A stretch of DNA of 64,000 bases. Source: Myxococcota bacterium (GTDB lineage Bacteria; Myxococcota_A; UBA9160; UBA6930). The translations under genes and the position numbers were made by a program. The stretch spans positions 1,410,582 through 1,474,581 of the forward strand of contig OZ245015.1 in assembly GCA_965223705.1 (NCBI GenBank), read 5' to 3'. Under the pieces are notes generated by a model that was not told where the DNA came from, made no database searches, and saw only the letters and a list, made by a program, of their open reading frames with translations. Positions 2-10,133 of this stretch are shown piece after piece; the first letter of the stretch is position 1; each line of letters begins with the position of its first letter.

Positions 2-577
2 GCTGCCGAGGCGGCTTCTCTCCTCGCGGTGCGAGACGAAGCGCTCAGGCACTTGTTCGAAGGGATTTCCTACGCCCCGATGGCGAGCGTCGCGCTTCCG
101 GTGGACCCCTCTGACTCGCGCGAGCGAATTCACGGATTCGGGTTTCTCGTGCCCCGAGGCGCCGGCCTGCGGCTCTTGGGGGCGCTCTTCCCTGCACGCG
201 TGTTTCCCGACCGCGCGCCCGAGGGCCGCGAGCTCGTCATGGCCATGCTCGGCGGGACGCGCTGGCCCGGCGTGGTCGATGCGACGGACGACGCGCTCCT
301 CGAAAGCGCGACGATCGGGCTCAAGCGCACCCTCGGCGCCGGGGTGAAGCACGCCCCGCTCGCCGTTCATCGTTGGCCCCGTGCGGTTCCGCAACCCGGT
401 CCCGACCACCGTCGGCGAATCGAGGCGCTGCGCAAGGCGACCACCGCGCGTTGGCCCGGCTTACGCCTCGCTGGGTCCTACCTCGACGGCGTCAGCGTCG
501 GCGACACGCTCCTTTCCGGCGTGCGCGCCGCGCGCTCACTGATCGCCGCGAGTGAACCAACCTCCGAGCCACGCTGA
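2..577 (+). CDS. hemY: protoporphyrinogen/coproporphyrinogen oxidase (HemY family), C-terminal part; 5' end outside window
   Basis: The reading frame is open to the window edge. HGFGFLVPRGAGLRLLGALFP...ELVMAMLGG...LRLAGSYLDGVSVGDTLLSG resembles the C-terminal region of HemY-type FAD oxidases. Recognised from memory only. Confidence 0.6.
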   Translation, partial: AAEAASLLAVRDEALRHLFEGISYAPMASVALPVDPSDSRERIHGFGFLVPRGAGLRLLGALFPARVFPDRAPEGRELVMAMLGGTRWPGVVDATDDALLESATIGLKRTLGAGVKHAPLAVHRWPRAVPQPGPDHRRRIEALRKATTARWPGLRLAGSYLDGVSVGDTLLSGVRAARSLIAASEPTSEPR

Positions 578-1258
578 AACGACGAAGTAGTACGCCGGGT
601 AGGCGAGTGAGACGGACATGCAAAGCGCCGCGAGGCGGTGCCCCGCGGTCAAGAGTGCCCCAGTCACCAGCAGGAACCAGACCCCTCCGAGTACGCAACT
701 GATCGTCCGGAGACGCGTCATCCGGCTCGGGTAGATGAAGGGAAGCCGGGGGAAGGTCGCGACCGCGAGGAGAAGGACGAGCGCCGAAGCCACGCCAGCA
801 GGAACGTCGTACCACCACAAGTAGATCGCCACGACGTTCCAGTACGACGGAAAACCGAGAAAGAAGTGGTCCGCGGTCTTCGCGTCGCTTCGGCAGAAAC
901 CGTACGCGCTAGCGAGGACGACGACCGCGGCGATTCCGAGATGCGGGACCGCGCCGCTCCCGAGCATGAAGAACGCCGGAATCACCGTGTAGTTCAGGAA
1001 ATCGACGATATCGTCGAGGCGGCGTCCGTCGATATTCGGGAGCCATCGGCTCACCTCCGCCCGGCGGGCGAGGGCGCCGTCGACCGAATCGATGGCCATC
1101 GCCAGAAGCGACCACAACGCGGCCGCGCGAAAGTCGCCCGCGGCGATCGCCAACAGGCTCGCGACGCCGACGACGGCGCCGCTGGCGGTCAACGCGTGAA
1201 CCGCTCCGGCGGCGATCCGGCGCGCGAAGCGTGTCGTATTGGAGTCGCTATCTTTCAC
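536..1258 (-). CDS. pcs: CDP-alcohol phosphatidyltransferase, phosphatidylcholine synthase-like
   Basis: Polytopic membrane ORF of 240 aa. It carries the CDP-alcohol motif DSVDGALARR...GRRLDDIVDFLNY. The flanking patterns VHALTASG, IPAFF and DHFFLGFPSYWN resemble rhizobial Pcs. Confidence 0.7.
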   Translation of the reverse strand: MKDSDSNTTRFARRIAAGAVHALTASGAVVGVASLLAIAAGDFRAAALWSLLAMAIDSVDGALARRAEVSRWLPNIDGRRLDDIVDFLNYTVIPAFFMLGSGAVPHLGIAAVVVLASAYGFCRSDAKTADHFFLGFPSYWNVVAIYLWWYDVPAGVASALVLLLAVATFPRLPFIYPSRMTRLRTISCVLGGVWFLLVTGALLTAGHRLAALCMSVSLAYPAYYFVVSAWLGGWFTRGDQ

Positions 1259-1881
1259 TCGCCATGCGTTCCTGGAAGCGCCAGACCCCCGAGCGGGCAG
1301 CCTACACCGAACGAGCTTCGCAGGTCTTAACGCGCAGACTTCGAGAGCGCCAAGGGCCGGAATCGTTCATCACCAGCCGGATGGATCGCGCCGTCGCCTG
1401 GGCGCGCAAGTATTCGCTCACCTCGACGCGCTTCTCCGGCTCGTGTTGCGCGCTCGAACTCGACGCGGCGATGGGCCCGCGTTTCGACATGCCGCGCTTC
1501 GGGTGCACCGTGCCGCGGTCGCCGGTGGATGCGGCGGACCTGCTCTTCGTCACCGGCACCGTGACGCAACGCCAGGCGCCGCTGCTCAAGCAAGCCTACG
1601 ACGCGATGCCGGAACCGAAATGGGTCATGGCGATCGGAGCGTGCGGCTGCTCGGGCGGCATGTATGACAACTACGCGGTGGTGCAGGGGGTCGACACGAT
1701 TCTTCCGGTCGACGTCTACGTCGCGGGTTGTCCGCCGACGCCCGAGGCGATTCTCGACGGCCTGCGAAAACTGCAGGCTCGCATCCAGAGCGAGCGCGTG
1801 CCTCGGCACGGGCGCCATGCGGAAGCGGAAGATTTGCCGACACTCGAAGGTCCACGGCCCGGTCCGGGACCCGGCATGTAG
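1231..1881 (+). CDS. nuoB: NADH-quinone oxidoreductase subunit B-like (NuoB/20 kDa family)
   Basis: WARKYSL...FSGSCCALE...MAIGACGCSGGMYDNY...VYVAGCPPTPEAIL gives the four Cys ligands of Fe-S cluster N2. The start is uncertain: 1231, 1264 and 1381 are all in frame. No nuoA lies upstream. Confidence 0.85.
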   Translation: MSYWSRYLSLAMRSWKRQTPERAAYTERASQVLTRRLRERQGPESFITSRMDRAVAWARKYSLTSTRFSGSCCALELDAAMGPRFDMPRFGCTVPRSPVDAADLLFVTGTVTQRQAPLLKQAYDAMPEPKWVMAIGACGCSGGMYDNYAVVQGVDTILPVDVYVAGCPPTPEAILDGLRKLQARIQSERVPRHGRHAEAEDLPTLEGPRPGPGPGM

Positions 1882-1978
1882 TCGCCCTAAGCCCGGGGAA
1901 CACCGCGATGAATCGACCATCAAGCCCGGCGGGCTTCCAGCCGATTTGGAAGGGTATGACAGCGCTAGGAGGGCCTCT

Positions 1979-3382
1979 GTGAGTTCGGCTGTTCGGGCAG
2001 ATCTCGCCGTTCTCGGCGCCGGACCGGGCGGCTACGTCGCCGCGATCCGCGCCGCACAACTCGGACAGAAGGTCGTGATCATCGATCGCGATCGCCCGGG
2101 GGGTGTCTGCCTCAATTGGGGCTGTATTCCTACCAAAGCGTTGCTCACGGGGGCCGAATGGGTGGAGAATCTCCGTAAACACGGGGAGACCTTCGGCATC
2201 GGTGCTTCCGGAATCACGCTCGATTACGCGAAGGCCTTGGCGCACAGTCGAAAAACCTCCGACCGCCTCTGCAAAGGCGTTCAGTCGCTGTTCAAGAAGA
2301 ATCAAATCGAGTGGGTGCAGGGCGACGCGAGGCTCCGAGGTCCCCACGAGATCGACGTCGAAGGCGGCGCGACCTCATCCGTCGAGGCGGCTCAGATCAT
2401 CCTCGCGACCGGTTCCGAGGAGTTTGTCCCACCCGGGGTCGAAGTCGATGGGAGTCGGGTTTTGACGTCGCGCGAGGCCCTCGAATCGCCCGTGATCCCG
2501 GACCGCCTGGTCATCATCGGCGCCGGCGCCGTCGGGGTCGAGTTCGCCTATATCTACGCGACCTACGGCGCGCACGTCACGGTGATCGAGATGGCGGACC
2601 AGGTCTTGCCGGGGGCGGACGTCGAGGTCGGCGCAGCGCTGCAACGAGAATTCCGACGCAAGAACATCGAAGTGCGGTTGGGGACGCGATTTGAGGGCGT
2701 CAAGACGGGGAACGGTTCGGTGCAAGTCGCGGTGAGTCGCGAGGGTGTCGGCGAAGAAATCGAAGCGAACCAGCTGCTGCTCGCTATCGGTCGCCGTCCT
2801 CTCGCGGCCGATCTCGGTCTCGAAGCGGCGGGGGTCGCGACTGACGCCCGTGGCTTCATCGAAGTCGACGCCCAACTAAAGACCAGCGTGCCCAGCATCG
2901 CCGCGGTGGGGGATGTCGCCGGGCCGCCGCTCCTGGCGCACAAAGCCTCCGAGGAAGGGATTGCTGCCGTCGAGTTCGCGGCGGGCCACGACCGCGCGGC
3001 CCTCGACCACCGCAAGATTCCGGGCTGTATCTACGCGCAACCGCAAGTGGCCTGGGTCGGTCTGACCGAAGCGGAGGCGCGCGCGGAATACGGCGACGAC
3101 ATCCGCATCGGAAAATTTCCCTTCACCGCGTCCGGCAAGGCGATCGCATCGACACACACCGCCGGCTTCACGAAAGTCATCGCCGAGCCGCGCTATGGCG
3201 AGATCGTCGGAGCTCACATCATCGGTCACGGCGCGACCGAGCTCATCGCCGAGATCGGTCTCGCGATGACGCTCGAAGCGACGACCGCCGAGATCATCGG
3301 AACCTGTCACGCCCACCCGACCCTGGCGGAAGCGATCCTCGAAGCCACGCTCGCCGCCGAAGGTCGGAGTATTAACTTTTAA
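1979..3382 (+). CDS. lpdA: dihydrolipoyl dehydrogenase (E3)
   Basis: ADLAVLGAGPGGYVAA (FAD-binding), GGVCLNWGCIPTKALL (redox disulfide) and C-terminal HAHPTLAEA are present. I chose the in-frame GTG at 1979, about 9 nt after AGGAGG at 1964-1969. The track's 1664 extension is Arg-rich junk. Confidence 0.9.
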   Translation: MSSAVRADLAVLGAGPGGYVAAIRAAQLGQKVVIIDRDRPGGVCLNWGCIPTKALLTGAEWVENLRKHGETFGIGASGITLDYAKALAHSRKTSDRLCKGVQSLFKKNQIEWVQGDARLRGPHEIDVEGGATSSVEAAQIILATGSEEFVPPGVEVDGSRVLTSREALESPVIPDRLVIIGAGAVGVEFAYIYATYGAHVTVIEMADQVLPGADVEVGAALQREFRRKNIEVRLGTRFEGVKTGNGSVQVAVSREGVGEEIEANQLLLAIGRRPLAADLGLEAAGVATDARGFIEVDAQLKTSVPSIAAVGDVAGPPLLAHKASEEGIAAVEFAAGHDRAALDHRKIPGCIYAQPQVAWVGLTEAEARAEYGDDIRIGKFPFTASGKAIASTHTAGFTKVIAEPRYGEIVGAHIIGHGATELIAEIGLAMTLEATTAEIIGTCHAHPTLAEAILEATLAAEGRSINF

Positions 3383-3401
3383 GCCCTAAAGGGAGCCGTC
3401 C

Positions 3402-4730
3402 ATGTCTATCCCCGTGGAGTTACCGGAACTCGGTGAAAGTGTCGTCGAAGGCACCATCGCCCGTTGGTTGGTGAAGGAAGGCGATCGGGTCGAACTCGAT
3501 CAACCGGTCGTCGAAGTCACCACCGACAAGGTCGATGCGGAAATTCCCGCGCCGAGCGGCGGAGTGATCGAAGCCATCCTCGTGGCGGAGGGAGAGACCG
3601 TGGCCGTGGGTACGGTCCTCGCTCGGATCGACCCCGCTGCCGAGGCGGCCATCGCGAACACCGACGCGGTCGCGCAACCGGTGGCCGCACAAGCGCCCGA
3701 TGCCGCACCGAGTGCGCGGCCCACGCCTGCGGCGGCGCGTATGGCTGCCGAGCAGGGCACCGATCTCACCGGCGTCTCCGGAAGTGGCGTCGGCGGGCGC
3801 ATTACGAAAGACGATGTCGCAGCCCGCGCGGCGATGGAGACTCGCCAACCACCTGCTCCGGCTCCGCCCCCGGTTCAAGCGCAATCCGCACCGGTCGCGC
3901 CGCCGGCTGCGGCGGAAGAACGCCCCGCGCCGCAGGCCGCGTCGAACCAGGCGGACCGTCGTGTCGCCGCCGCCTCGGTGCCCGAACGCGAGCAAAAGCG
4001 CATGCCCTACGCGTCGGTCGATCTCGAAGAGGGGGATCGCGTGATTCCCATGACGCCGATCCGGCGTCTCGTCGCCGAGCACATGGTGTACTCGAAGCGC
4101 ACCAGCCCGCACGTCGGAACGGTTGCGGAGATCGATCTCGGCGGTGTCGTCGCCGTACGCGCCGCGAGCAAGGCGAAGTTTGAGGAGACCCACGGCGTCT
4201 CGTTGACGTACCTCCCGTTCATCGTGCACGCGACCGTGCGCGCGTTGCGCGAACACCCCCGGTTGAACGCTTCCGTGATTGAGGACGCGATTGTCGAGAA
4301 GAGAGATTTGAACATCGGCATCGCCGTCGAGACGGAGAAAGGCCTGGTGGTTCCCGTCGTGCGGAACGCCGACCGCTTGTCGCTCGCAGGCCTCGCCGCT
4401 GCGATCGAAGATCTCTCGACGCGGGCTCGAACGAAAAAGCTCACGGCGGATGATCTCAAGGGTGGGACGTTCACCGTTTCGAACCCGGGCCGGCACGGGA
4501 ACCTCTACGGGTTCGCGATCATCAATCAGCCCCAGGTCGGCATCCTTCGCATGGGAGAGATCGTGAAGCGGCCGGTGGTCCGGACCGTCGACGGTTCCGA
4601 CGCGATCGTCATCCGGCCGATGATGCATCTCGCCCTGTCGTACGATCACCGCGCAGTCGACGGCGCTCCGGCAAACGGATTCCTGTACCGGGTGCGCGAG
4701 ATCCTCGAGGAAGCCGATTTCGACCTCTAG
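3402..4730 (+). CDS. dihydrolipoamide acyltransferase (E2) of a 2-oxoacid dehydrogenase complex
   Basis: Three parts are visible: an N-terminal lipoyl domain (VEVTTDKVDAEIPAP), an Ala/Pro linker with an E3-binding segment (GSGVGGRITKDDV), and a catalytic domain (LALSYDHRAVDGA). Substrate specificity cannot be told from the sequence. Confidence 0.9.
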   Translation: MSIPVELPELGESVVEGTIARWLVKEGDRVELDQPVVEVTTDKVDAEIPAPSGGVIEAILVAEGETVAVGTVLARIDPAAEAAIANTDAVAQPVAAQAPDAAPSARPTPAAARMAAEQGTDLTGVSGSGVGGRITKDDVAARAAMETRQPPAPAPPPVQAQSAPVAPPAAAEERPAPQAASNQADRRVAAASVPEREQKRMPYASVDLEEGDRVIPMTPIRRLVAEHMVYSKRTSPHVGTVAEIDLGGVVAVRAASKAKFEETHGVSLTYLPFIVHATVRALREHPRLNASVIEDAIVEKRDLNIGIAVETEKGLVVPVVRNADRLSLAGLAAAIEDLSTRARTKKLTADDLKGGTFTVSNPGRHGNLYGFAIINQPQVGILRMGEIVKRPVVRTVDGSDAIVIRPMMHLALSYDHRAVDGAPANGFLYRVREILEEADFDL

Positions 4731-4794
4731 GCTCTCCGTCGATTGGCTCGGCGAAGTCGCGTACGACGCCGCGCTGGCCCGACAAGAAGCGGCT

Positions 4795-5382
4795 GTGGCG
4801 CAGCGAAGGGCCGGGGGAGGGCGCGATCGCCTGTTGCTCTTGACCCATCCGCCGGTCATCACGCTGGGGCGCGCTGCGAAACCGGAGAACCTTCTGACGC
4901 CTCGGGACGAGCTCGCGCGCCGCGGCATCGCGGTACACGAAGTCGCGCGGGGAGGCGACGTCACGTTCCACGGGCCGGGCCAGCTGGTTGGCTATCCCAT
5001 CTTCGACTTGAAGTCCCGCGGCGCGGCCGATGTCTACGAGTTCTTGCGCTCCCTGGAGGGGTGCCTCATCGAAGCGCTGGGCGCGATCGGCGTCTCCGGG
5101 GCACGGTGTGAGGGCCGCACCGGGGTGTTCGTCGAGAGCAGCGCGCCGCTGCGGAAGATCGCCTCCATCGGGATCGGAGTCCGTCGCTGGGTCACGTTTC
5201 ACGGATTCGCGCTGAACGTGACCCTCGACCCCGACGCGTTTCGCGACATCGTTCCCTGCGGCCTTCACGACGTCGAAATGACATCGGTGGCACGGGAGCT
5301 CGGGTGTGAGCCGGACGAAAGGCTCTTTACCGCGGTTCGAGACGAGGTCACCGAGGCGTTCCGCCGAGCCTTCGACTCGTAG
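4795..5382 (+). CDS. lipB: octanoyltransferase LipB
   Basis: HPPVITLGR, RGGDVTFHGPGQLVGYPI, KIASIGIGV and IVPCGL are present. LipB-like sequence (DWLGEVAYDAALARQ) continues upstream to about 4741, where there is no ATG, GTG or TTG. The real start may therefore precede 4795. Confidence 0.85.
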   Translation: MAQRRAGGGRDRLLLLTHPPVITLGRAAKPENLLTPRDELARRGIAVHEVARGGDVTFHGPGQLVGYPIFDLKSRGAADVYEFLRSLEGCLIEALGAIGVSGARCEGRTGVFVESSAPLRKIASIGIGVRRWVTFHGFALNVTLDPDAFRDIVPCGLHDVEMTSVARELGCEPDERLFTAVRDEVTEAFRRAFDS

Positions 5383-5436
5383 CGCGCGGCGCCAGACGCC
5401 GGGTCTCTGTCCCAGCCGTTCGTTACTCTGCAGCGC

Positions 5437-5979
5437 GTGGGGGGGCAGGTGATATCGGTAGGCGACCGCGCGAAGCGTCGCGAACCCTCGCTCGTCGGTT
5501 CCTTCCTTCGAGCGCTGTTCGTGGCGCTGCGTCGGGGTTGGCGGGCCCGTGCGAGCGGGCGCGGCGATCGGGGCCAAGCCGGTCTCGACTATCCCGATGA
5601 ATCCCGCACCGGTGCTTGTCTCGCGCGTGGAGTTCCCGTCCTCGTCGCCGGGCCGGCGGGCGCGCCCCGCTGCGTTCCCTGCTCGGCGTGCACCAGCGCG
5701 TGCCCGACCGATTGCATCGTGGTATGGCCCCAGGGTGGGGGCGTCGAAGCACCCGAGCGCTTCGAGATCGACATGTCGCGTTGTATCTACTGCGGCCTCT
5801 GCGAAGCGGTGTGTCCCGAAGAGGCCATCGTGCTGAGCAGCGAAGTCGCCATCGCCGACTACGAGCGGAGGTCGCTGCGTTTCGACCTGGCGAATCTTCT
5901 CGTACCCGAGGAGCTTCTGGACGACTCGCTGTCTCGCGCTCGCGCAACGCGATCCCAGGTCCGGGATCCCGCCGCATGA
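5437..5979 (+). CDS. nuoI: NuoI-like 2x[4Fe-4S] ferredoxin subunit
   Basis: Two CxxCxxCxxxCP motifs are present: CVPCSACTSACP and CIYCGLCEAVCP. The N-terminus follows the NuoI pattern (FLRALFVALRR...LDYPDE). The stop overlaps the next start as ATGA. Confidence 0.8.
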   Translation: MGGQVISVGDRAKRREPSLVGSFLRALFVALRRGWRARASGRGDRGQAGLDYPDESRTGACLARGVPVLVAGPAGAPRCVPCSACTSACPTDCIVVWPQGGGVEAPERFEIDMSRCIYCGLCEAVCPEEAIVLSSEVAIADYERRSLRFDLANLLVPEELLDDSLSRARATRSQVRDPAA

Positions 5980-6455
5980 GAGCGACGCTTGAGGCGCTAC
6001 AAGCCGCGTTGCCCTCCGCGGTCCTCGAGCGCCGCGACGCCCTCGATTGTGTGGAGCTTCGGGTCGCATCGCCGTTCATCGTCCCGCTGACGCGCTTTCT
6101 CCGCGATCGCGCGACTCCGCCCTTCTCAGTCCTCATCGACCTCACGGCCGTGGACTACCCCGAGAGAACGCCGCGGTTCGATCTCATCTATCAGCTCCTT
6201 GCCGTGGAGCCCGGCGTCCGCATTCGGCTCGTGTGTGAAGTCTCCGAGCGACCCGCCGAAGTGGATTCCATCCACGCGGTCTTCCCCGCGGCAAACTGGT
6301 TGGAGCGTGAAGTGTTCGATTTGTACGGCGTGCGCTTCCTGGGTCACCCCGACCTTCGACGGATCCTCCTCGACGCGTCTTTCGACGGTCATCCACTGCG
6401 GAAGGACTACGACAAACGGCGTCGCCAGCCCGTGCGTTCAGGGACGACGCGTTGA
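5976..6455 (+). CDS. nuoC: NuoC-like (30 kDa) subunit
   Basis: DLTAVDYPERTPRFDLIYQLL...ANWLEREVFDLYGVRFLGHPDLRRILL...GHPLRKDY matches the family. The ATG at 5976 overlaps the nuoI stop. The track's 5616 start is an Arg-rich extension. Confidence 0.85.
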   Translation: MRATLEALQAALPSAVLERRDALDCVELRVASPFIVPLTRFLRDRATPPFSVLIDLTAVDYPERTPRFDLIYQLLAVEPGVRIRLVCEVSERPAEVDSIHAVFPAANWLEREVFDLYGVRFLGHPDLRRILLDASFDGHPLRKDYDKRRRQPVRSGTTR

Positions 6456-7552
6456 CCGCGCCTCGTGACGAACTCGTTCTCGACCCGACACATCCCGCGA
6501 CGCACGGCGCTGTCTCTTTTCGCGTCGAGGTCGAAGACGAACACATCGCCGTCCTCGATCTCTCCGTCGGTTTCCTGCATCGCGGCTTTGAAAAAGAATG
6601 CGAAAGTCGTCGCTTCTCCGAGGCGATCCCCTACGCCGATCGCCTGAACTACCAATCTTCGGTGTTGTCGAGTCTCGCCTATTGCCTCGCGGTCGAGCGA
6701 TTGTTCGAAACACCGGTCAGTGAGCGCGCGGTTTGGCTGCGCACGTTCGCGGGTGAGCTCGCCCGAATCGCGGACCACTTGACGCGCCTCGCTGCGACGG
6801 CGGACGCGCTGGGTCTCGCCGCGGCGGTCGCTTACACGACGTCGGCGCGGGAGCTCATCTGGGACGCACTCGAGCTGCTGACGGGCGCGCGGGTGACCCA
6901 TCACTATCTTCGCATCGGCGGCGTCCGTGGGGACCTTACGCAAGCGGCCGACGCGTGCGCGCGATCCGCGCTCGATCGACTCGACGACTTCGTCGGAGAT
7001 TTCGAGCGCCTGACCAGTCGAAATCGCGCTGTGCTCGCTCGCCTGCGAGGGGTGGCTTCGATCGATCGGGACGTCTGCCTTCGCTACGGCGTGACGGGCC
7101 CGATTCTGCGAGCGAGCGGTTGTCCGCGAGATATCCGCAAGGACGAACCGTACCTCGCCTACCGCGACGTCGACTTCGACGTTCCCGTGGGCACGAACGG
7201 TGACAATGCGGACCGACTGCTCGTATGCATCGAAGAAGTGCGCCAGAGTGCCCGGATCGCGCTGCAGTGCCTCGACCGACTAGCCGACCTCGCTCCCGTC
7301 GACGAGAGGCGCCTCGACGAAACGCGAGCGCTACCCGCGGGCCAATGCTACGTCCCGACGGAATCCGCGAACGGTGAGCTCGGTTTCTTTATCGTCTCGA
7401 ACGGCGACGAGATGCCACATCGCGTTCGCTGTCGGGCACCGAGCTTCTTTCATGCGGCGGCGCTCTCGGAGATCCTCCGAGGAGAAGCAATTTCCGAACT
7501 GTCTCCGACGTTCGAGTTGTTGAACGTCGTAAGCGGCGAATGCGATCGATAA
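6452..7552 (+). CDS. nuoD: NuoD-like (49 kDa) subunit, no [NiFe] ligands
   Basis: HPATHGAVSF...VGFLHRGFEKE...YADRLNY...THHYLRIGGV...YVPTESANGELGFFIVS...RVRCRAPSF...VVSGECDR. There are no CxxC pairs at either end, so it is NuoD-type rather than a hydrogenase large subunit. The TTG start overlaps the nuoC stop (TTGA). Confidence 0.85.
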   Translation: MTAPRDELVLDPTHPATHGAVSFRVEVEDEHIAVLDLSVGFLHRGFEKECESRRFSEAIPYADRLNYQSSVLSSLAYCLAVERLFETPVSERAVWLRTFAGELARIADHLTRLAATADALGLAAAVAYTTSARELIWDALELLTGARVTHHYLRIGGVRGDLTQAADACARSALDRLDDFVGDFERLTSRNRAVLARLRGVASIDRDVCLRYGVTGPILRASGCPRDIRKDEPYLAYRDVDFDVPVGTNGDNADRLLVCIEEVRQSARIALQCLDRLADLAPVDERRLDETRALPAGQCYVPTESANGELGFFIVSNGDEMPHRVRCRAPSFFHAAALSEILRGEAISELSPTFELLNVVSGECDR

Positions 7553-8043
7553 TCCCACCGCTACGTCCTTTCGGACTCCGCTTGCATCACGACGGTCGTT
7601 GGACCCACGAGGGCCATCCGATCTTGAACCGCAAGCTTCGCGAAGCGTTCGATCGCGGCGTCGCTTACGCACCGGACGAGGACGTATTCGTCGTCACGTT
7701 GGGGCACTACCGCGGCCAAATCGAGGTCGAAGAAGCTGCGTTCTTCGTGCGCAGCATCGACCTCGAACGCGGAACGGTCACGCTTTCCGACGGAAGTGAA
7801 GAAGCGCTCGACCCGGGGACGCTCGGGTTGTCGGAGCGCGACGGAGCCTTACTCGCCAGTGTCGCGAGACCCGGGACGGACCGTCGCGTCCTCGCGCGCT
7901 TTGACGCCGGAGCGCACGCCGAACTCTTGCTGGCGGTGGAGCCAACCGGCGAGGGATTCGAAATCGCGCTGGGCGGCCGTCGCTACTCGCTCCCCGACGC
8001 GCTCACGCGCGAGGCTTCCGAGAGTCCCAGCGGCCGATTGTGA
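7540..8043 (+). CDS. DUF1285-like protein
   Basis: LRLHHDGRWTHEGHPILNRKLREAFDRGV...FVVTLGHYRGQIEVEEAAFFV resembles the DUF1285 pattern (DG.W.H.G..I.r..L..lF). It overlaps the nuoD 3' end by 13 nt. Confidence 0.5.
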   Translation: MRSIIPPLRPFGLRLHHDGRWTHEGHPILNRKLREAFDRGVAYAPDEDVFVVTLGHYRGQIEVEEAAFFVRSIDLERGTVTLSDGSEEALDPGTLGLSERDGALLASVARPGTDRRVLARFDAGAHAELLLAVEPTGEGFEIALGGRRYSLPDALTREASESPSGRL

Positions 8044-10133
8044 TAGCGCATGTACTTGACGGTCTCGTACGTGGCGAAGGTCTGGGCGGATAGCTCCGCC
8101 GCCACTTCGGGCTCGGCGGCGACTAGGTTGTCGCGCGCGTTCTCACTGTAGATGCGATGCAGCGAAGGCTTCGTTCCGTCGTGCTGGACGGTGAAGTAAT
8201 ACTCGTCCGTCACGAGACCGAGCAGCGGACCGTGCCCTTGGCCGGTGATGGTGAACGCGTACCGCGGCCCCCTCTCGGGCTCGAGCAAGCTCTGACCGAG
8301 TGTTGTCGCGATACCTCCCACGCCGGCCAAGTCGACCAGCGTCGGCATGAGGTCGACCGTGCTTCCGATGCGGTCGCTTTCGCCGGGCGCGATCCATTTG
8401 GGCCCGTATAAAACGAGGGGCACGTGGTAGCGCGTGAGTCGAAGCTGATCTTCTCCCGCCGGCCGATGTCGTGTCGACGCCGGCGATCCGTGATCGCCAA
8501 AGAACGCAAAGATCGTGTCGTCGAAATACCCTTCACGGCGCGCGGCTTCGAAGAACCAGCCCAGGCTGTGGTCCATCAGTCGCATCCCGTCGTACTCCGC
8601 GACGGTGTCGAAACCGTGGGGAACGACTTCGGAATCCGTCAGGTTCGAAGGTTCGAAACCTCGGCTGTCTTCGGGGATCGTAAACGGCTTGTGGTTTCCC
8701 GCGGTGTGGATGAAGGCGACGAAAGGTTCTTCGGTTTCGCGCAGGACGCGATTCGCCTCTTCGAACAAGTGGAGGTCGCTGATCCCCCACACATCGACGC
8801 GGGGCGAGCTGTAATCGCCTTCTTCGTAGATACGGGCGCCCGGGATGTTGTGTTGGAGGAGCGCCCGAATGTTCGCCCAGCTCGCGCTCCCGCCCAAGAA
8901 ATAGAATTTCTCGTACCCGCGAAACGCGTTGTAGAGGGTGTGTTGCTCGACGATCAAGGGGTTTCGGGTGGAGGTCTTCGAGGGTTCGACGTCCGGTAGC
9001 CCGGTGAACGCTGCGAACACAGCTCGCGCCGTCCCACCGTGGGGCGCGTAGAATCGTCGGAACAGCATGCCGTCTCGCGCGATGGCATCGAGGTTCGGCG
9101 AGGGATCGAGTGCGTTGCCGGAGAAGCCGGTCTTGTAGTACGCGAGGGATTCGAGCAACACGATGACGACGTTCGGCTTGCCTTCGCGCTGCCCGCTCGA
9201 TTCGACTGGACGCCGGTAGTTGAGCTCGGAAGCGTCGCGGCCGGGAACCTCCAGGTAGCCCGACATCCGCGGGTACATCGCTCGTGCGGTGTCGACGTCG
9301 AATTCGACGGTTCGATTCTTCACCGTGTCGAGGAAATAGAGCGCGGGGTTCAGGGCGACGGCGGAAGCGAACTCGTGCGTTGAGAAGAACGCGTCGCTCC
9401 AACGCAGCGGATAGTAGGAGAGCTTGCCGTAGATCCCGCCGGCGAAGATGAGCACGCCCAGAGCGGCCGCTGTGAGCTGCGCATTGCGGCTCGCTCGCGC
9501 CGCACCGGCCACGGGAAGGGTTCGCTTGAGGAGGACGACGTAGAGACCCGTGAGAGCTGCGACGCCCAGCAGTGCAGGCACTACGGGGTAGCTCTCCCAA
9601 AGCACGCCGAAGCTCTCGCGCGGGTTGTGGAGAAAGCGGAGTGAGGACGCATCGAGGCGCGCAGCGAGATAGCCGTAGTGACCCAGGTCGAAACCGTGGA
9701 CAAGGGTGAGCAGCACCGTCGCCACCGCGAGATAAGCGATCGACCAAGTTCGCGGTCGTCCCGGGTGCGCGGGGTTCCAGCGCGGAACTGCGCCGATGAG
9801 CGCCAACGGAACGTGGATGCACAACAACAAGCGGAGGTCGAATTTCGCCCCGATGTAGAACGCCTCGAGGATGGAACGGCCGGGTGCGGGATCGAGCGGG
9901 TCGCGGAAGATCCACCAGAACGCCGCGCGGAAGAGGCCGAGCAGGATCCACTGGATCAAGAGGCTCGTCGCGAGAAAGCGGAGGAGGGATGTCACGATGT
10001 GAGGACGCGGAACGCTAGGGAAGCGCCTCGGCGCTGGCGTAGCGCCGCTCGTAGTCGAGGACCATGCGTCCACGCTCATCGTTCCTGCCGAAGCTTCCGA
10101 GTCCCGAACGCCAGAACGCGGATTGGCGCGCAT
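7983..10133 (-). CDS. LTA synthase / phosphoglycerol-transferase family membrane sulfatase-fold enzyme
   Basis: N-terminal TM helices are followed by a sulfatase-fold domain (KPNVVIVLLESL, GGTARAVFAAFTG, HTAGNHKPF, FFGDHG). The start is uncertain: alternatives are ATG 10079 and GTG 9995, and the longest form overlaps the upstream gene. Confidence 0.75.
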   Translation of the reverse strand: MRANPRSGVRDSEASAGTMSVDAWSSTTSGATPAPRRFPSVPRPHIVTSLLRFLATSLLIQWILLGLFRAAFWWIFRDPLDPAPGRSILEAFYIGAKFDLRLLLCIHVPLALIGAVPRWNPAHPGRPRTWSIAYLAVATVLLTLVHGFDLGHYGYLAARLDASSLRFLHNPRESFGVLWESYPVVPALLGVAALTGLYVVLLKRTLPVAGAARASRNAQLTAAALGVLIFAGGIYGKLSYYPLRWSDAFFSTHEFASAVALNPALYFLDTVKNRTVEFDVDTARAMYPRMSGYLEVPGRDASELNYRRPVESSGQREGKPNVVIVLLESLAYYKTGFSGNALDPSPNLDAIARDGMLFRRFYAPHGGTARAVFAAFTGLPDVEPSKTSTRNPLIVEQHTLYNAFRGYEKFYFLGGSASWANIRALLQHNIPGARIYEEGDYSSPRVDVWGISDLHLFEEANRVLRETEEPFVAFIHTAGNHKPFTIPEDSRGFEPSNLTDSEVVPHGFDTVAEYDGMRLMDHSLGWFFEAARREGYFDDTIFAFFGDHGSPASTRHRPAGEDQLRLTRYHVPLVLYGPKWIAPGESDRIGSTVDLMPTLVDLAGVGGIATTLGQSLLEPERGPRYAFTITGQGHGPLLGLVTDEYYFTVQHDGTKPSLHRIYSENARDNLVAAEPEVAAELSAQTFATYETVKYMRYHNRPLGLSEASRVSASGSE

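Follow-up and report, generated by a model that had tools for sequence, protein, structure and literature searches.

The question raised by the 64 kb stretch of Myxococcota DNA considered here (part of contig OZ245015.1; the whole stretch that was analysed is called the window) is what kind of enzyme is encoded by a row of eight genes near its left end, in which nuoB, nuoI, nuoC and nuoD, genes for subunits of respiratory complex I, stand together with the lipoyl genes lpdA, E2 and lipB and with a gene for a protein of the DUF1285 fold. A first-pass annotation of this DNA had proposed that the lipoyl proteins supply electrons to the Nuo proteins. With moderate confidence we favor a different answer, namely that the cluster represents the Q-module portion of a complex I operon that has been split, with a lipoyl cassette co-located in it. 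The four nuo genes would encode the iron-sulfur (Fe-S) Q-module of a complex I-type enzyme, in which electrons are predicted to travel from clusters N6a and N6b in NuoI to cluster N2 in NuoB, beside the pocket of NuoD; the genes for its membrane arm, and for an NADH-oxidising module if it has one, would lie elsewhere in the genome, and we infer that the gene products come together as a complex I-like enzyme. The eight genes were identified by Pfam and NCBIfam profile matches, judged against the cutoffs of the models, and are as follows.

1231-1881, plus strand: nuoB-like, N2-cluster subunit (Oxidored_q6; NF005012 191 bits, cutoff 116; TIGR01957 169 bits, cutoff 143)
1979-3382, plus strand: lpdA, dihydrolipoyl dehydrogenase, E3 (TIGR01350 522 bits, cutoff 409)
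3402-4730, plus strand: E2 acyltransferase, SucB-like (Pfam Biotin_lipoyl, E3_binding and 2-oxoacid_dh)
4795-5382, plus strand: lipB, octanoyl/lipoyl transferase (TIGR00214 150 bits, cutoff 84)
5437-5979, plus strand: nuoI-like, two 4Fe-4S clusters (top matches are NuoI models, below cutoff; TIGR01971 83 bits, cutoff 113)
5976-6455, plus strand: nuoC-like, 30-kDa subunit (Complex1_30kDa; TIGR01961 127 bits, cutoff 122)
6452-7552, plus strand: nuoD-like, 49-kDa subunit (NF004739 362 bits, marginal to its cutoff of 360; TIGR01962 323 bits, below its cutoff of 459)
7540-8043, plus strand: DUF1285-fold gene (DUF1285_N 20 bits, below its threshold of 29.3; fold match)

The tight, co-directional packing of these genes, already described in the first-pass annotation, is borne out by their coordinates, family matches and junctions, which include an ATGA overlap of nuoI with nuoC, a TTGA overlap of nuoC with nuoD and a 13-nt overlap of nuoD with the DUF1285-fold gene. 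The diagnostic motifs had likewise been read correctly: the NuoB cysteines lie in CC at residue 22, GACGCSGG at 86 and GCPP at 116, NuoI has two CxxCxxCxxxCP motifs (at 79 and 116), and NuoD, which ends in SGECDR, has HPATHG and DRLNY and lacks CxxC pairs. The N-terminus of NuoI (MGGQVISV) agrees with the start of its family. The best profile hidden Markov models are Nuo and not hydrogenase models, with NuoB and NuoC above cutoff, NuoD marginal on one model and below cutoff on another, and NuoI below cutoff. A [NiFe] hydrogenase, Ech or Mbh identity of the NuoD-like protein was rejected on the missing CxxC pairs and on its best models, which are NuoD and FpoD. No 19-residue Kyte-Doolittle window resembling a transmembrane (TM) segment was found in any of the eight products, as had been claimed, in a scan for which E. 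coli NuoA (38 TM-like windows) and NuoH (75) served as positive controls. When the full set of 13 Nuo proteins of E. coli, its SucA and AceE, and the E1α, E1β and LipA proteins of relatives were used as tblastn queries, the 64 kb gave no further nuo, E1 or lipA gene, so that the earlier statement about the absence of other nuo genes and of E1 also holds.

Recurrence of this gene order in relatives had been set as a test of its significance, and the layout proved to be widespread. It is present in 78 of the 80 best loci from a scan of GTDB species genomes, all of them from uncultured Myxococcota and none of the 80 from the window's own genome, and in about 66 of 80 loci examined from a metagenome scan, or about 150 loci overall. 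The closest relatives have the order E2-lipB-nuoI-nuoC-nuoD-DUF, and more distant metagenome-assembled genomes (MAGs) of Myxococcota have the full nuoB-lpdA-E2-lipB-nuoI-C-D-DUF. The invariant unit is nuoB … nuoI-nuoC-nuoD-f14-DUF1285-fold gene, where f14 is a short gene described below, and the segment between nuoB and nuoI varies, with lpdA, a sucB-like E2, E1αβ-E2' in some cases, lipB, and lipA in some cases. In its fullest form (lpdA-sucB-E1α-E1β-E2'-lipB-lipA) this cassette is a self-sufficient set for a 2-oxoacid dehydrogenase and for lipoate; E1α/β lie within it at 18 genome loci of the window's layout (19 with the Binatia-type locus L085, introduced below) and at a few metagenome loci. 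In its emptiest form nuoB abuts nuoI (L003/L024, which are one contig, L006, L040, L061, L102 and L125). None of nuoA, H, J, K, L, M, N, E, F or G was found within the inspected flanks, up to ±10 kb, of any locus with the window's layout. The layout of these loci is a real, conserved unit, beyond chance. At L117 (3286-3761) the NuoB match falls into two pieces in different frames with a 4-nt overlap, which could stem from a frameshift or from a mistake in assembly.

What the family as a whole does is best seen outside the subclade to which the window belongs. There, NuoB, NuoI, NuoC and NuoD are extremely conserved, with a median of 1-2 deviations at 61-225 conserved columns (alignment columns at least 90% conserved), and keep the YPF, SPRQ and CPPRPE motifs of NuoB as well as the quinone-site His and Tyr and the MEELIQQFK segment of NuoD. 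These elements are features of a working quinone pocket, one that requires NuoH, and their tight conservation across the family outside the subclade argues for a canonical function of the family as a whole. Three NuoD substitutions, D86N, R350N and D401N, are common to the window's layout and to the canonical nuoA-B-C-D-G-H-I cluster of locus L084, and the same three have been described for complex I of Myxococcales (PMC4758237). Canonical A-B-C-D-G-H-I clusters were seen at L084, L087, L089 and L166, and a search with NuoH of Bradymonadales gave only Bradymonadia-like matches, of at least 63% identity, of which the two inspected are canonical nuoA-B-C-D-G-H-I clusters. The four Nuo proteins of the window's layout are closer in sequence to those of another arrangement, nuoB-G-I-C-D-E-F-f14, than to those of the canonical cluster. 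This arrangement, found in a Binatia MAG (L085) and at nine metagenome loci, is the sister clade in a neighbour-joining tree of NuoD, and at L085 the genes E1α-E1β-E2 directly follow the nuo operon. The operons of the peripheral arm alone are these.

L085:6749-16745, and L158, L160-L162, L164, L167, L169 and L170: peripheral-arm-only operons, with no membrane nuo gene in flanks of up to 10 kb

Relative to this sister clade, the genes of the NADH-oxidising module (N-module) would have left the operon and the DUF1285-fold gene would have been added to it. Taken together, the conservation of the Q-pocket, the Myxococcales-type substitutions, the sister-clade operon and the split operons documented in other bacteria (see below) favor the reading as a split complex I.

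A different account of the lipoyl genes is that LpdA, the lipoyl-E2 and LipB themselves bring electrons into a dihydrolipoamide-linked Q-module oxidoreductase as its input module, as the first-pass annotation had suggested from their position. The positional part of that suggestion stands: most loci have the lipoyl genes in the slot between nuoB and nuoI, which nuoG occupies in the sister clade (where nuoE and nuoF follow nuoD), no gene for NuoE, F or G is found in the operon, and in the Binatia-type locus E1αβ-E2 lies beside the nuo cluster. The functional part is not supported, since the cassette is variable in content and missing altogether from the loci with abutting nuoB and nuoI, the enzymes are standard ones, and their rates of evolution, as given below, do not follow those of the Nuo proteins. 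LpdA is an NAD-linked E3 of the standard kind, with a complete NAD motif; it has the redox disulfide CLNWGC at 44, HAHPTLAE at 444, and GAGPGG and GAGAVG as its FAD/NAD GxGxxG motifs. The E2, with TDKV at residue 41 and DHRAVDG at 415, has a lipoyl domain, a normal E3-binding domain and a catalytic core, its best NCBIfam models being SucB models with scores under the equivalog cutoffs. All standard E3 and E2 motifs are thus carried by the two proteins of the window. In addition, the B-G-I-C-D-E-F relatives carry an ordinary NADH-oxidising module, and we know of no precedent for the transfer of electrons from lipoamide to Fe-S clusters in NuoI, which we also count against this model. We regard it as extremely improbable. 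Under the split complex I reading, lpdA, the SucB-like E2 and lipB would have their ordinary roles in 2-oxoacid dehydrogenase complexes and in the attachment of lipoate, as a variable cassette lodged between nuoB and nuoI and presumably unconnected to the Fe-S chain. The lipoyl and respiratory genes are probably co-expressed. The slot shared with sister-clade nuoG and the E1αβ-E2 genes beside the nuo cluster of L085 indicate that the linkage of lipoyl and nuo genes is conserved, and it may reflect co-regulation.

The window itself belongs to a group in which the Nuo proteins have diverged in an unusual manner. As a measure of rate we took the ratio of two median identities, that of the window protein to its relatives over that of the relatives to each other, and this ratio is 0.67 for NuoB, 0.61 for NuoI, 0.76 for NuoC and 0.62 for NuoD, each of them lower than the value of any other member, even the most divergent. 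For the neighboring products it is 0.99 (LpdA), 1.03 (E2), 0.98 (LipB) and 0.95 (DUF1285-fold protein), and these normal rates rule out a generally fast-evolving genome as the cause. NuoB, NuoI, NuoC and NuoD are specifically accelerated in the window's sublineage and are strongly derived in comparison with their orthologues. Acceleration of the Nuo proteins without that of LpdA, E2 and LipB also argues against a tight physical complex between the two sets. The window deviates at 36 of 110 conserved columns in NuoB, 38 of 88 in NuoI and 81 of 225 in NuoD; at universal columns, i.e., those identical in E. coli and in each of the three layouts of Myxococcota and Binatia, the deviations number 7 of 51 (NuoB), 5 of 34 (NuoI), 2 of 29 (NuoC) and 17 of 84 (NuoD), and the median for other members is 0. 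The NuoB motif SPRQA has become SPVDA, which makes the window's the sole sequence without PRQ among 53 NuoB proteins, and its NuoD has a deletion of 26 residues that removes a universally conserved segment (MEELIQQFK), aligned to PKERTLQHIETLITHF of E. coli.

In the NuoD tree the window lies on long branches with L001, L171 and L002, and P0002 and P0052 were added to this subclade from alignments; a metagenome scan directed at the subclade gave a single likely member, L171. Loss of the NuoD segment is graded among these sequences, which range from a degenerate segment (L002, P0052) through a partial deletion (L171) to full deletion (the window, P0002, L001). The quinone-site His is replaced by Q, G or R in relatives from the subclade and the Tyr by Pro in L171, and the window keeps both residues. 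The NuoD gene of L171 (422-1543) reads HPLTRA for HPATHG and GRLNP for DRLNY and has lost part of the segment, and its open reading frame (ORF) is intact. The Fe-S cysteines are kept in 83/83 NuoI and 53/53 NuoB sequences, the three closest NuoD sequences have a mean column identity of 83%, and members of the subclade, which are 50-65% identical to one another, all have intact genes. On these patterns of substitution, the constraint on the quinone-pocket region of the four Nuo proteins has relaxed or shifted and selection on the genes is ongoing, the latter being indicated by the intact ORFs, the kept overlaps, the Fe-S cysteines and the 83% identity in NuoD.

These and some of the preceding observations weigh against a split complex I. 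No membrane-arm gene is near any of the roughly 150 loci, the operon here has none of the N-module genes found in the sister clade, and the linkage of 2-oxoacid dehydrogenase and nuo genes extends over two phyla, which makes it more than a trivial accident. Moreover, the universal Q-pocket features that are eroded in the window's subclade (SPRQ, the NuoD segment, and the His and Tyr of relatives) are a poor fit to a standard quinone reductase. The possibility therefore has to be weighed that the four Nuo proteins, together with the DUF1285-fold protein, are an orphan or paralogous module that is no longer a quinone-reducing head, mainly in the window's subclade, and that serves as an Fe-S electron-transfer unit, soluble or otherwise anchored. 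It would account for an acceleration confined to the four Nuo proteins, for the loss of otherwise universal elements and the substitution of quinone-site residues, and for intact ORFs, overlaps and Fe-S cysteines, and the 83% column identity of NuoD speaks for selection for some function; the products also have no TM segments and no membrane nuo genes nearby. Nevertheless, the family outside the subclade holds the quinone-pocket residues tightly, the window itself retains the His and the Tyr, and no alternative partner or acceptor is identifiable, and we consider such a module unlikely, with a small but real chance of being correct. A more specific version, which we take to be quite unlikely, is that NuoB, NuoI, NuoC and NuoD have been released from the quinone-reductase role, keeping three Fe-S clusters with a pocket that is remodelled or lost, and that selection maintains them, along with the DUF1285-fold protein and beside the lipoyl enzymes, as a new complex-I-derived electron-transfer module that is possibly soluble.

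The same divergence could instead be that of a decaying, functionless remnant, left in the window's lineage after the loss of complex I and not yet reduced to pseudogenes. Rapid change at otherwise invariant positions, the progressive degradation and then deletion of the NuoD segment across the subclade, and the loss of f14 would all be expected of such a remnant. However, the nuo genes of the window have no frameshifts or stops, their codon-position GC is normal, the overlaps at their junctions persist and none of the 16 Fe-S cysteines has been lost. Genes that stay intact across a subclade whose members are 50-65% identical indicate long-term purifying selection, and decay is a distinctly improbable explanation. 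Our preference stays with the Q-module of a split complex I.

Two further genes go with the nuo genes, and both would be lineage-specific partners of the complex I-type enzyme. The DUF1285-fold gene follows nuoD in most loci. By sequence, 29 of its 37 homologues score too low for the Pfam threshold of DUF1285_N, and a profile search of the DUF1285-like family against PDB sequences gave no significant match. An AlphaFold2 (AF2) model built on the 37 homologues (predicted local distance difference test, pLDDT, 91.7) nonetheless had as its sole significant Foldseek matches in the PDB the DUF1285 structures 2re3 and 2ra9 (2re3: E = 4.5e-9, probability 1.0; TM-score 0.57-0.62), so that the DUF1285 label is upheld by fold, though not by Pfam score. 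The protein shares the two-domain fold of these PF06938 structures and differs from PF06938 in that its sequence similarity is under the Pfam threshold. Members of the DUF1285 family are mainly proteobacterial and are found beside Nudix hydrolases, and it has been suggested that they bind a nucleotide-type ligand and act in signalling (PMC2954208); no description of a linkage between DUF1285 and nuoD was found in the literature. The second gene, f14, is an ORF of about 80 residues with no Pfam family and with the motifs GSVNEPR, WNEKWVY and LWNRYDL, and no description of it was found in the literature either. Of 84 genome loci, 72 have f14 in the interval from nuoD to the DUF1285-fold gene (e.g., L006:11155-11388), as do most of the metagenome loci, and the nuoB-G-I-C-D-E-F loci carry it 3' of nuoF. 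It is absent from L001, L002 and the window, where nuoD ends at 7552 and the DUF1285-fold gene begins at 7540.

The starts of two genes in the window deserve comment. The public record places the start of nuoB at ATG 1381, and ATG 1264 and GTG 1231 are alternatives. Because the stretch RQGPESFITS (1351-1380), upstream of ATG 1381, is homologous to the N-termini of NuoB in relatives, so that homology extends upstream to about 1351, one of the two alternatives is likelier; a start at GTG 1231 would make nuoB overlap its divergent upstream neighbor, whose end is at 1258. In lipB, the conserved N-terminus WLGEVAYDAALARQ is encoded 5' of GTG 4795, from about 4717, in an open frame without ATG, GTG or TTG, and the start of the gene may be non-canonical or LipB may be N-terminally truncated. 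The LipB N-terminal stretch WLGEVAYDAALARQEAA falls within 4624-4800 (plus strand), the frame being open back through the 3' end of the E2 gene, and an ATT in this frame, at 4717, would overlap the stop codon of E2. The start of lpdA, GTG 1979, is preceded by AGGAGG. A scan for promoters and terminators gave nothing above shuffled controls and is uninformative on operon breaks at 1882-1978 or 5383-5436.

Immediately upstream of nuoB, on the opposite strand, is a membrane protein gene that was tried as a candidate for nuoA and rejected.

536-1258, minus strand: CDP-alcohol phosphatidyltransferase-like membrane protein (PF01066 23 bits, cutoff 22; 35 TM-like windows)

Beside it, at 29-577 on the plus strand, is the 3' end of a protoporphyrinogen-oxidase-like gene, and the same two neighbors, often with ferrochelatase, are found 5' of nuoB in about 40 related loci. 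On the other side of the cluster, a gene for a sulfatase-family membrane protein of 716 residues (7983-10133, minus strand) is convergent with the DUF1285-fold gene, their 3' ends overlapping by 61 nt; this neighbor is kept in L001, with a PTP-like phosphatase and CrcB coming after it. The rest of the window is of housekeeping character, with a putative rpoBC and ribosomal-protein region. A long run of co-directional ORFs at about 23600-53300 (plus strand) includes two of about 1,400 residues that are rpoB/rpoC-like, and the rest of the run resembles translation-factor and ribosomal-protein genes, in both cases by size and order only.

If the split-operon reading holds, uncultured Myxococcota would have a widespread and undescribed layout of complex I genes, with two conserved accessory genes (f14 and the DUF1285-fold gene) and no N-module in the operon, which bears on the exchange of input modules, and DUF1285 would for the first time be linked consistently to a respiratory enzyme. 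The subclade of the window can be viewed as a natural experiment, in which four interacting subunits sped up jointly and shed elements of the quinone pocket while keeping their Fe-S ligands. It could separate those parts of the Q-module that serve electron transfer from those that serve quinone chemistry, or could reveal a repurposed module.

No description of the whole layout, with the nuo Q-module, the lipoyl cassette and DUF1285, was found in the literature, in agreement with the earlier statement that no such system has been described. The component families and split nuo operons are already known, and it is this arrangement that is new. Scattered ndh genes in cyanobacteria are one case of a split complex I. 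In cultured myxobacteria, complex I is split into nuoIHGDBA and nuoEFJKLMN (PMC2330069), and in the 2M complex I of Chloroflexi nuoBCDI lie apart from the remaining operon (PMC7117926). The window resembles these split operons in having Q-module genes away from those of the membrane arm, with a full set of Fe-S ligands, and differs from them in its order, B…I-C-D in place of B-C-D…I, in the lack of any N-module gene in the operon, and in the addition, in layouts of its type, of f14 and the DUF1285-fold gene after nuoD and of the lipoyl cassette between nuoB and nuoI. The nuoB-G-I-C-D-E-F-f14 operons share with it the B…I-C-D order, f14, the lack of nearby membrane genes and, at L085, the adjacent E1αβ-E2; unlike it, they keep nuoG, nuoE and nuoF and are without the DUF1285-fold gene, so that, compared with the sister clade, the window's layout has the lipoyl cassette in the slot of nuoG and is missing nuoE and nuoF.

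Complex I-like enzymes of 11 subunits provide another point of comparison, since lineage-specific small accessory proteins are encoded beside their core genes (PMC3144371). NDH-1, the Fpo-like enzymes and NUO11, which use donors other than NADH, are like the window's layout in having B/C/D/I without NuoE, F or G in the operon, but their membrane subunits are known and their donor-docking subunits have been tested by experiment, whereas the membrane arm and any accessory role of f14 or the DUF1285-fold protein are putative in the window's layout. The last comparison is with the Ehr complexes. In Ehr the fold is kept, the hallmarks of the NiFe site and of the quinone site are both absent, and the membrane subunits are encoded in the same operon. 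Ehr is resembled by the NuoD-like proteins of the window's subclade, which are without NiFe ligands and are losing their quinone-site hallmarks, with Fe-S subunits that are intact. The window's proteins differ from Ehr in being clearly of the complex I type, their best models being NuoB, NuoC and NuoD, and a B/I/C/D module freed of its quinone role would be the bacterial, complex-I-side counterpart of Ehr.

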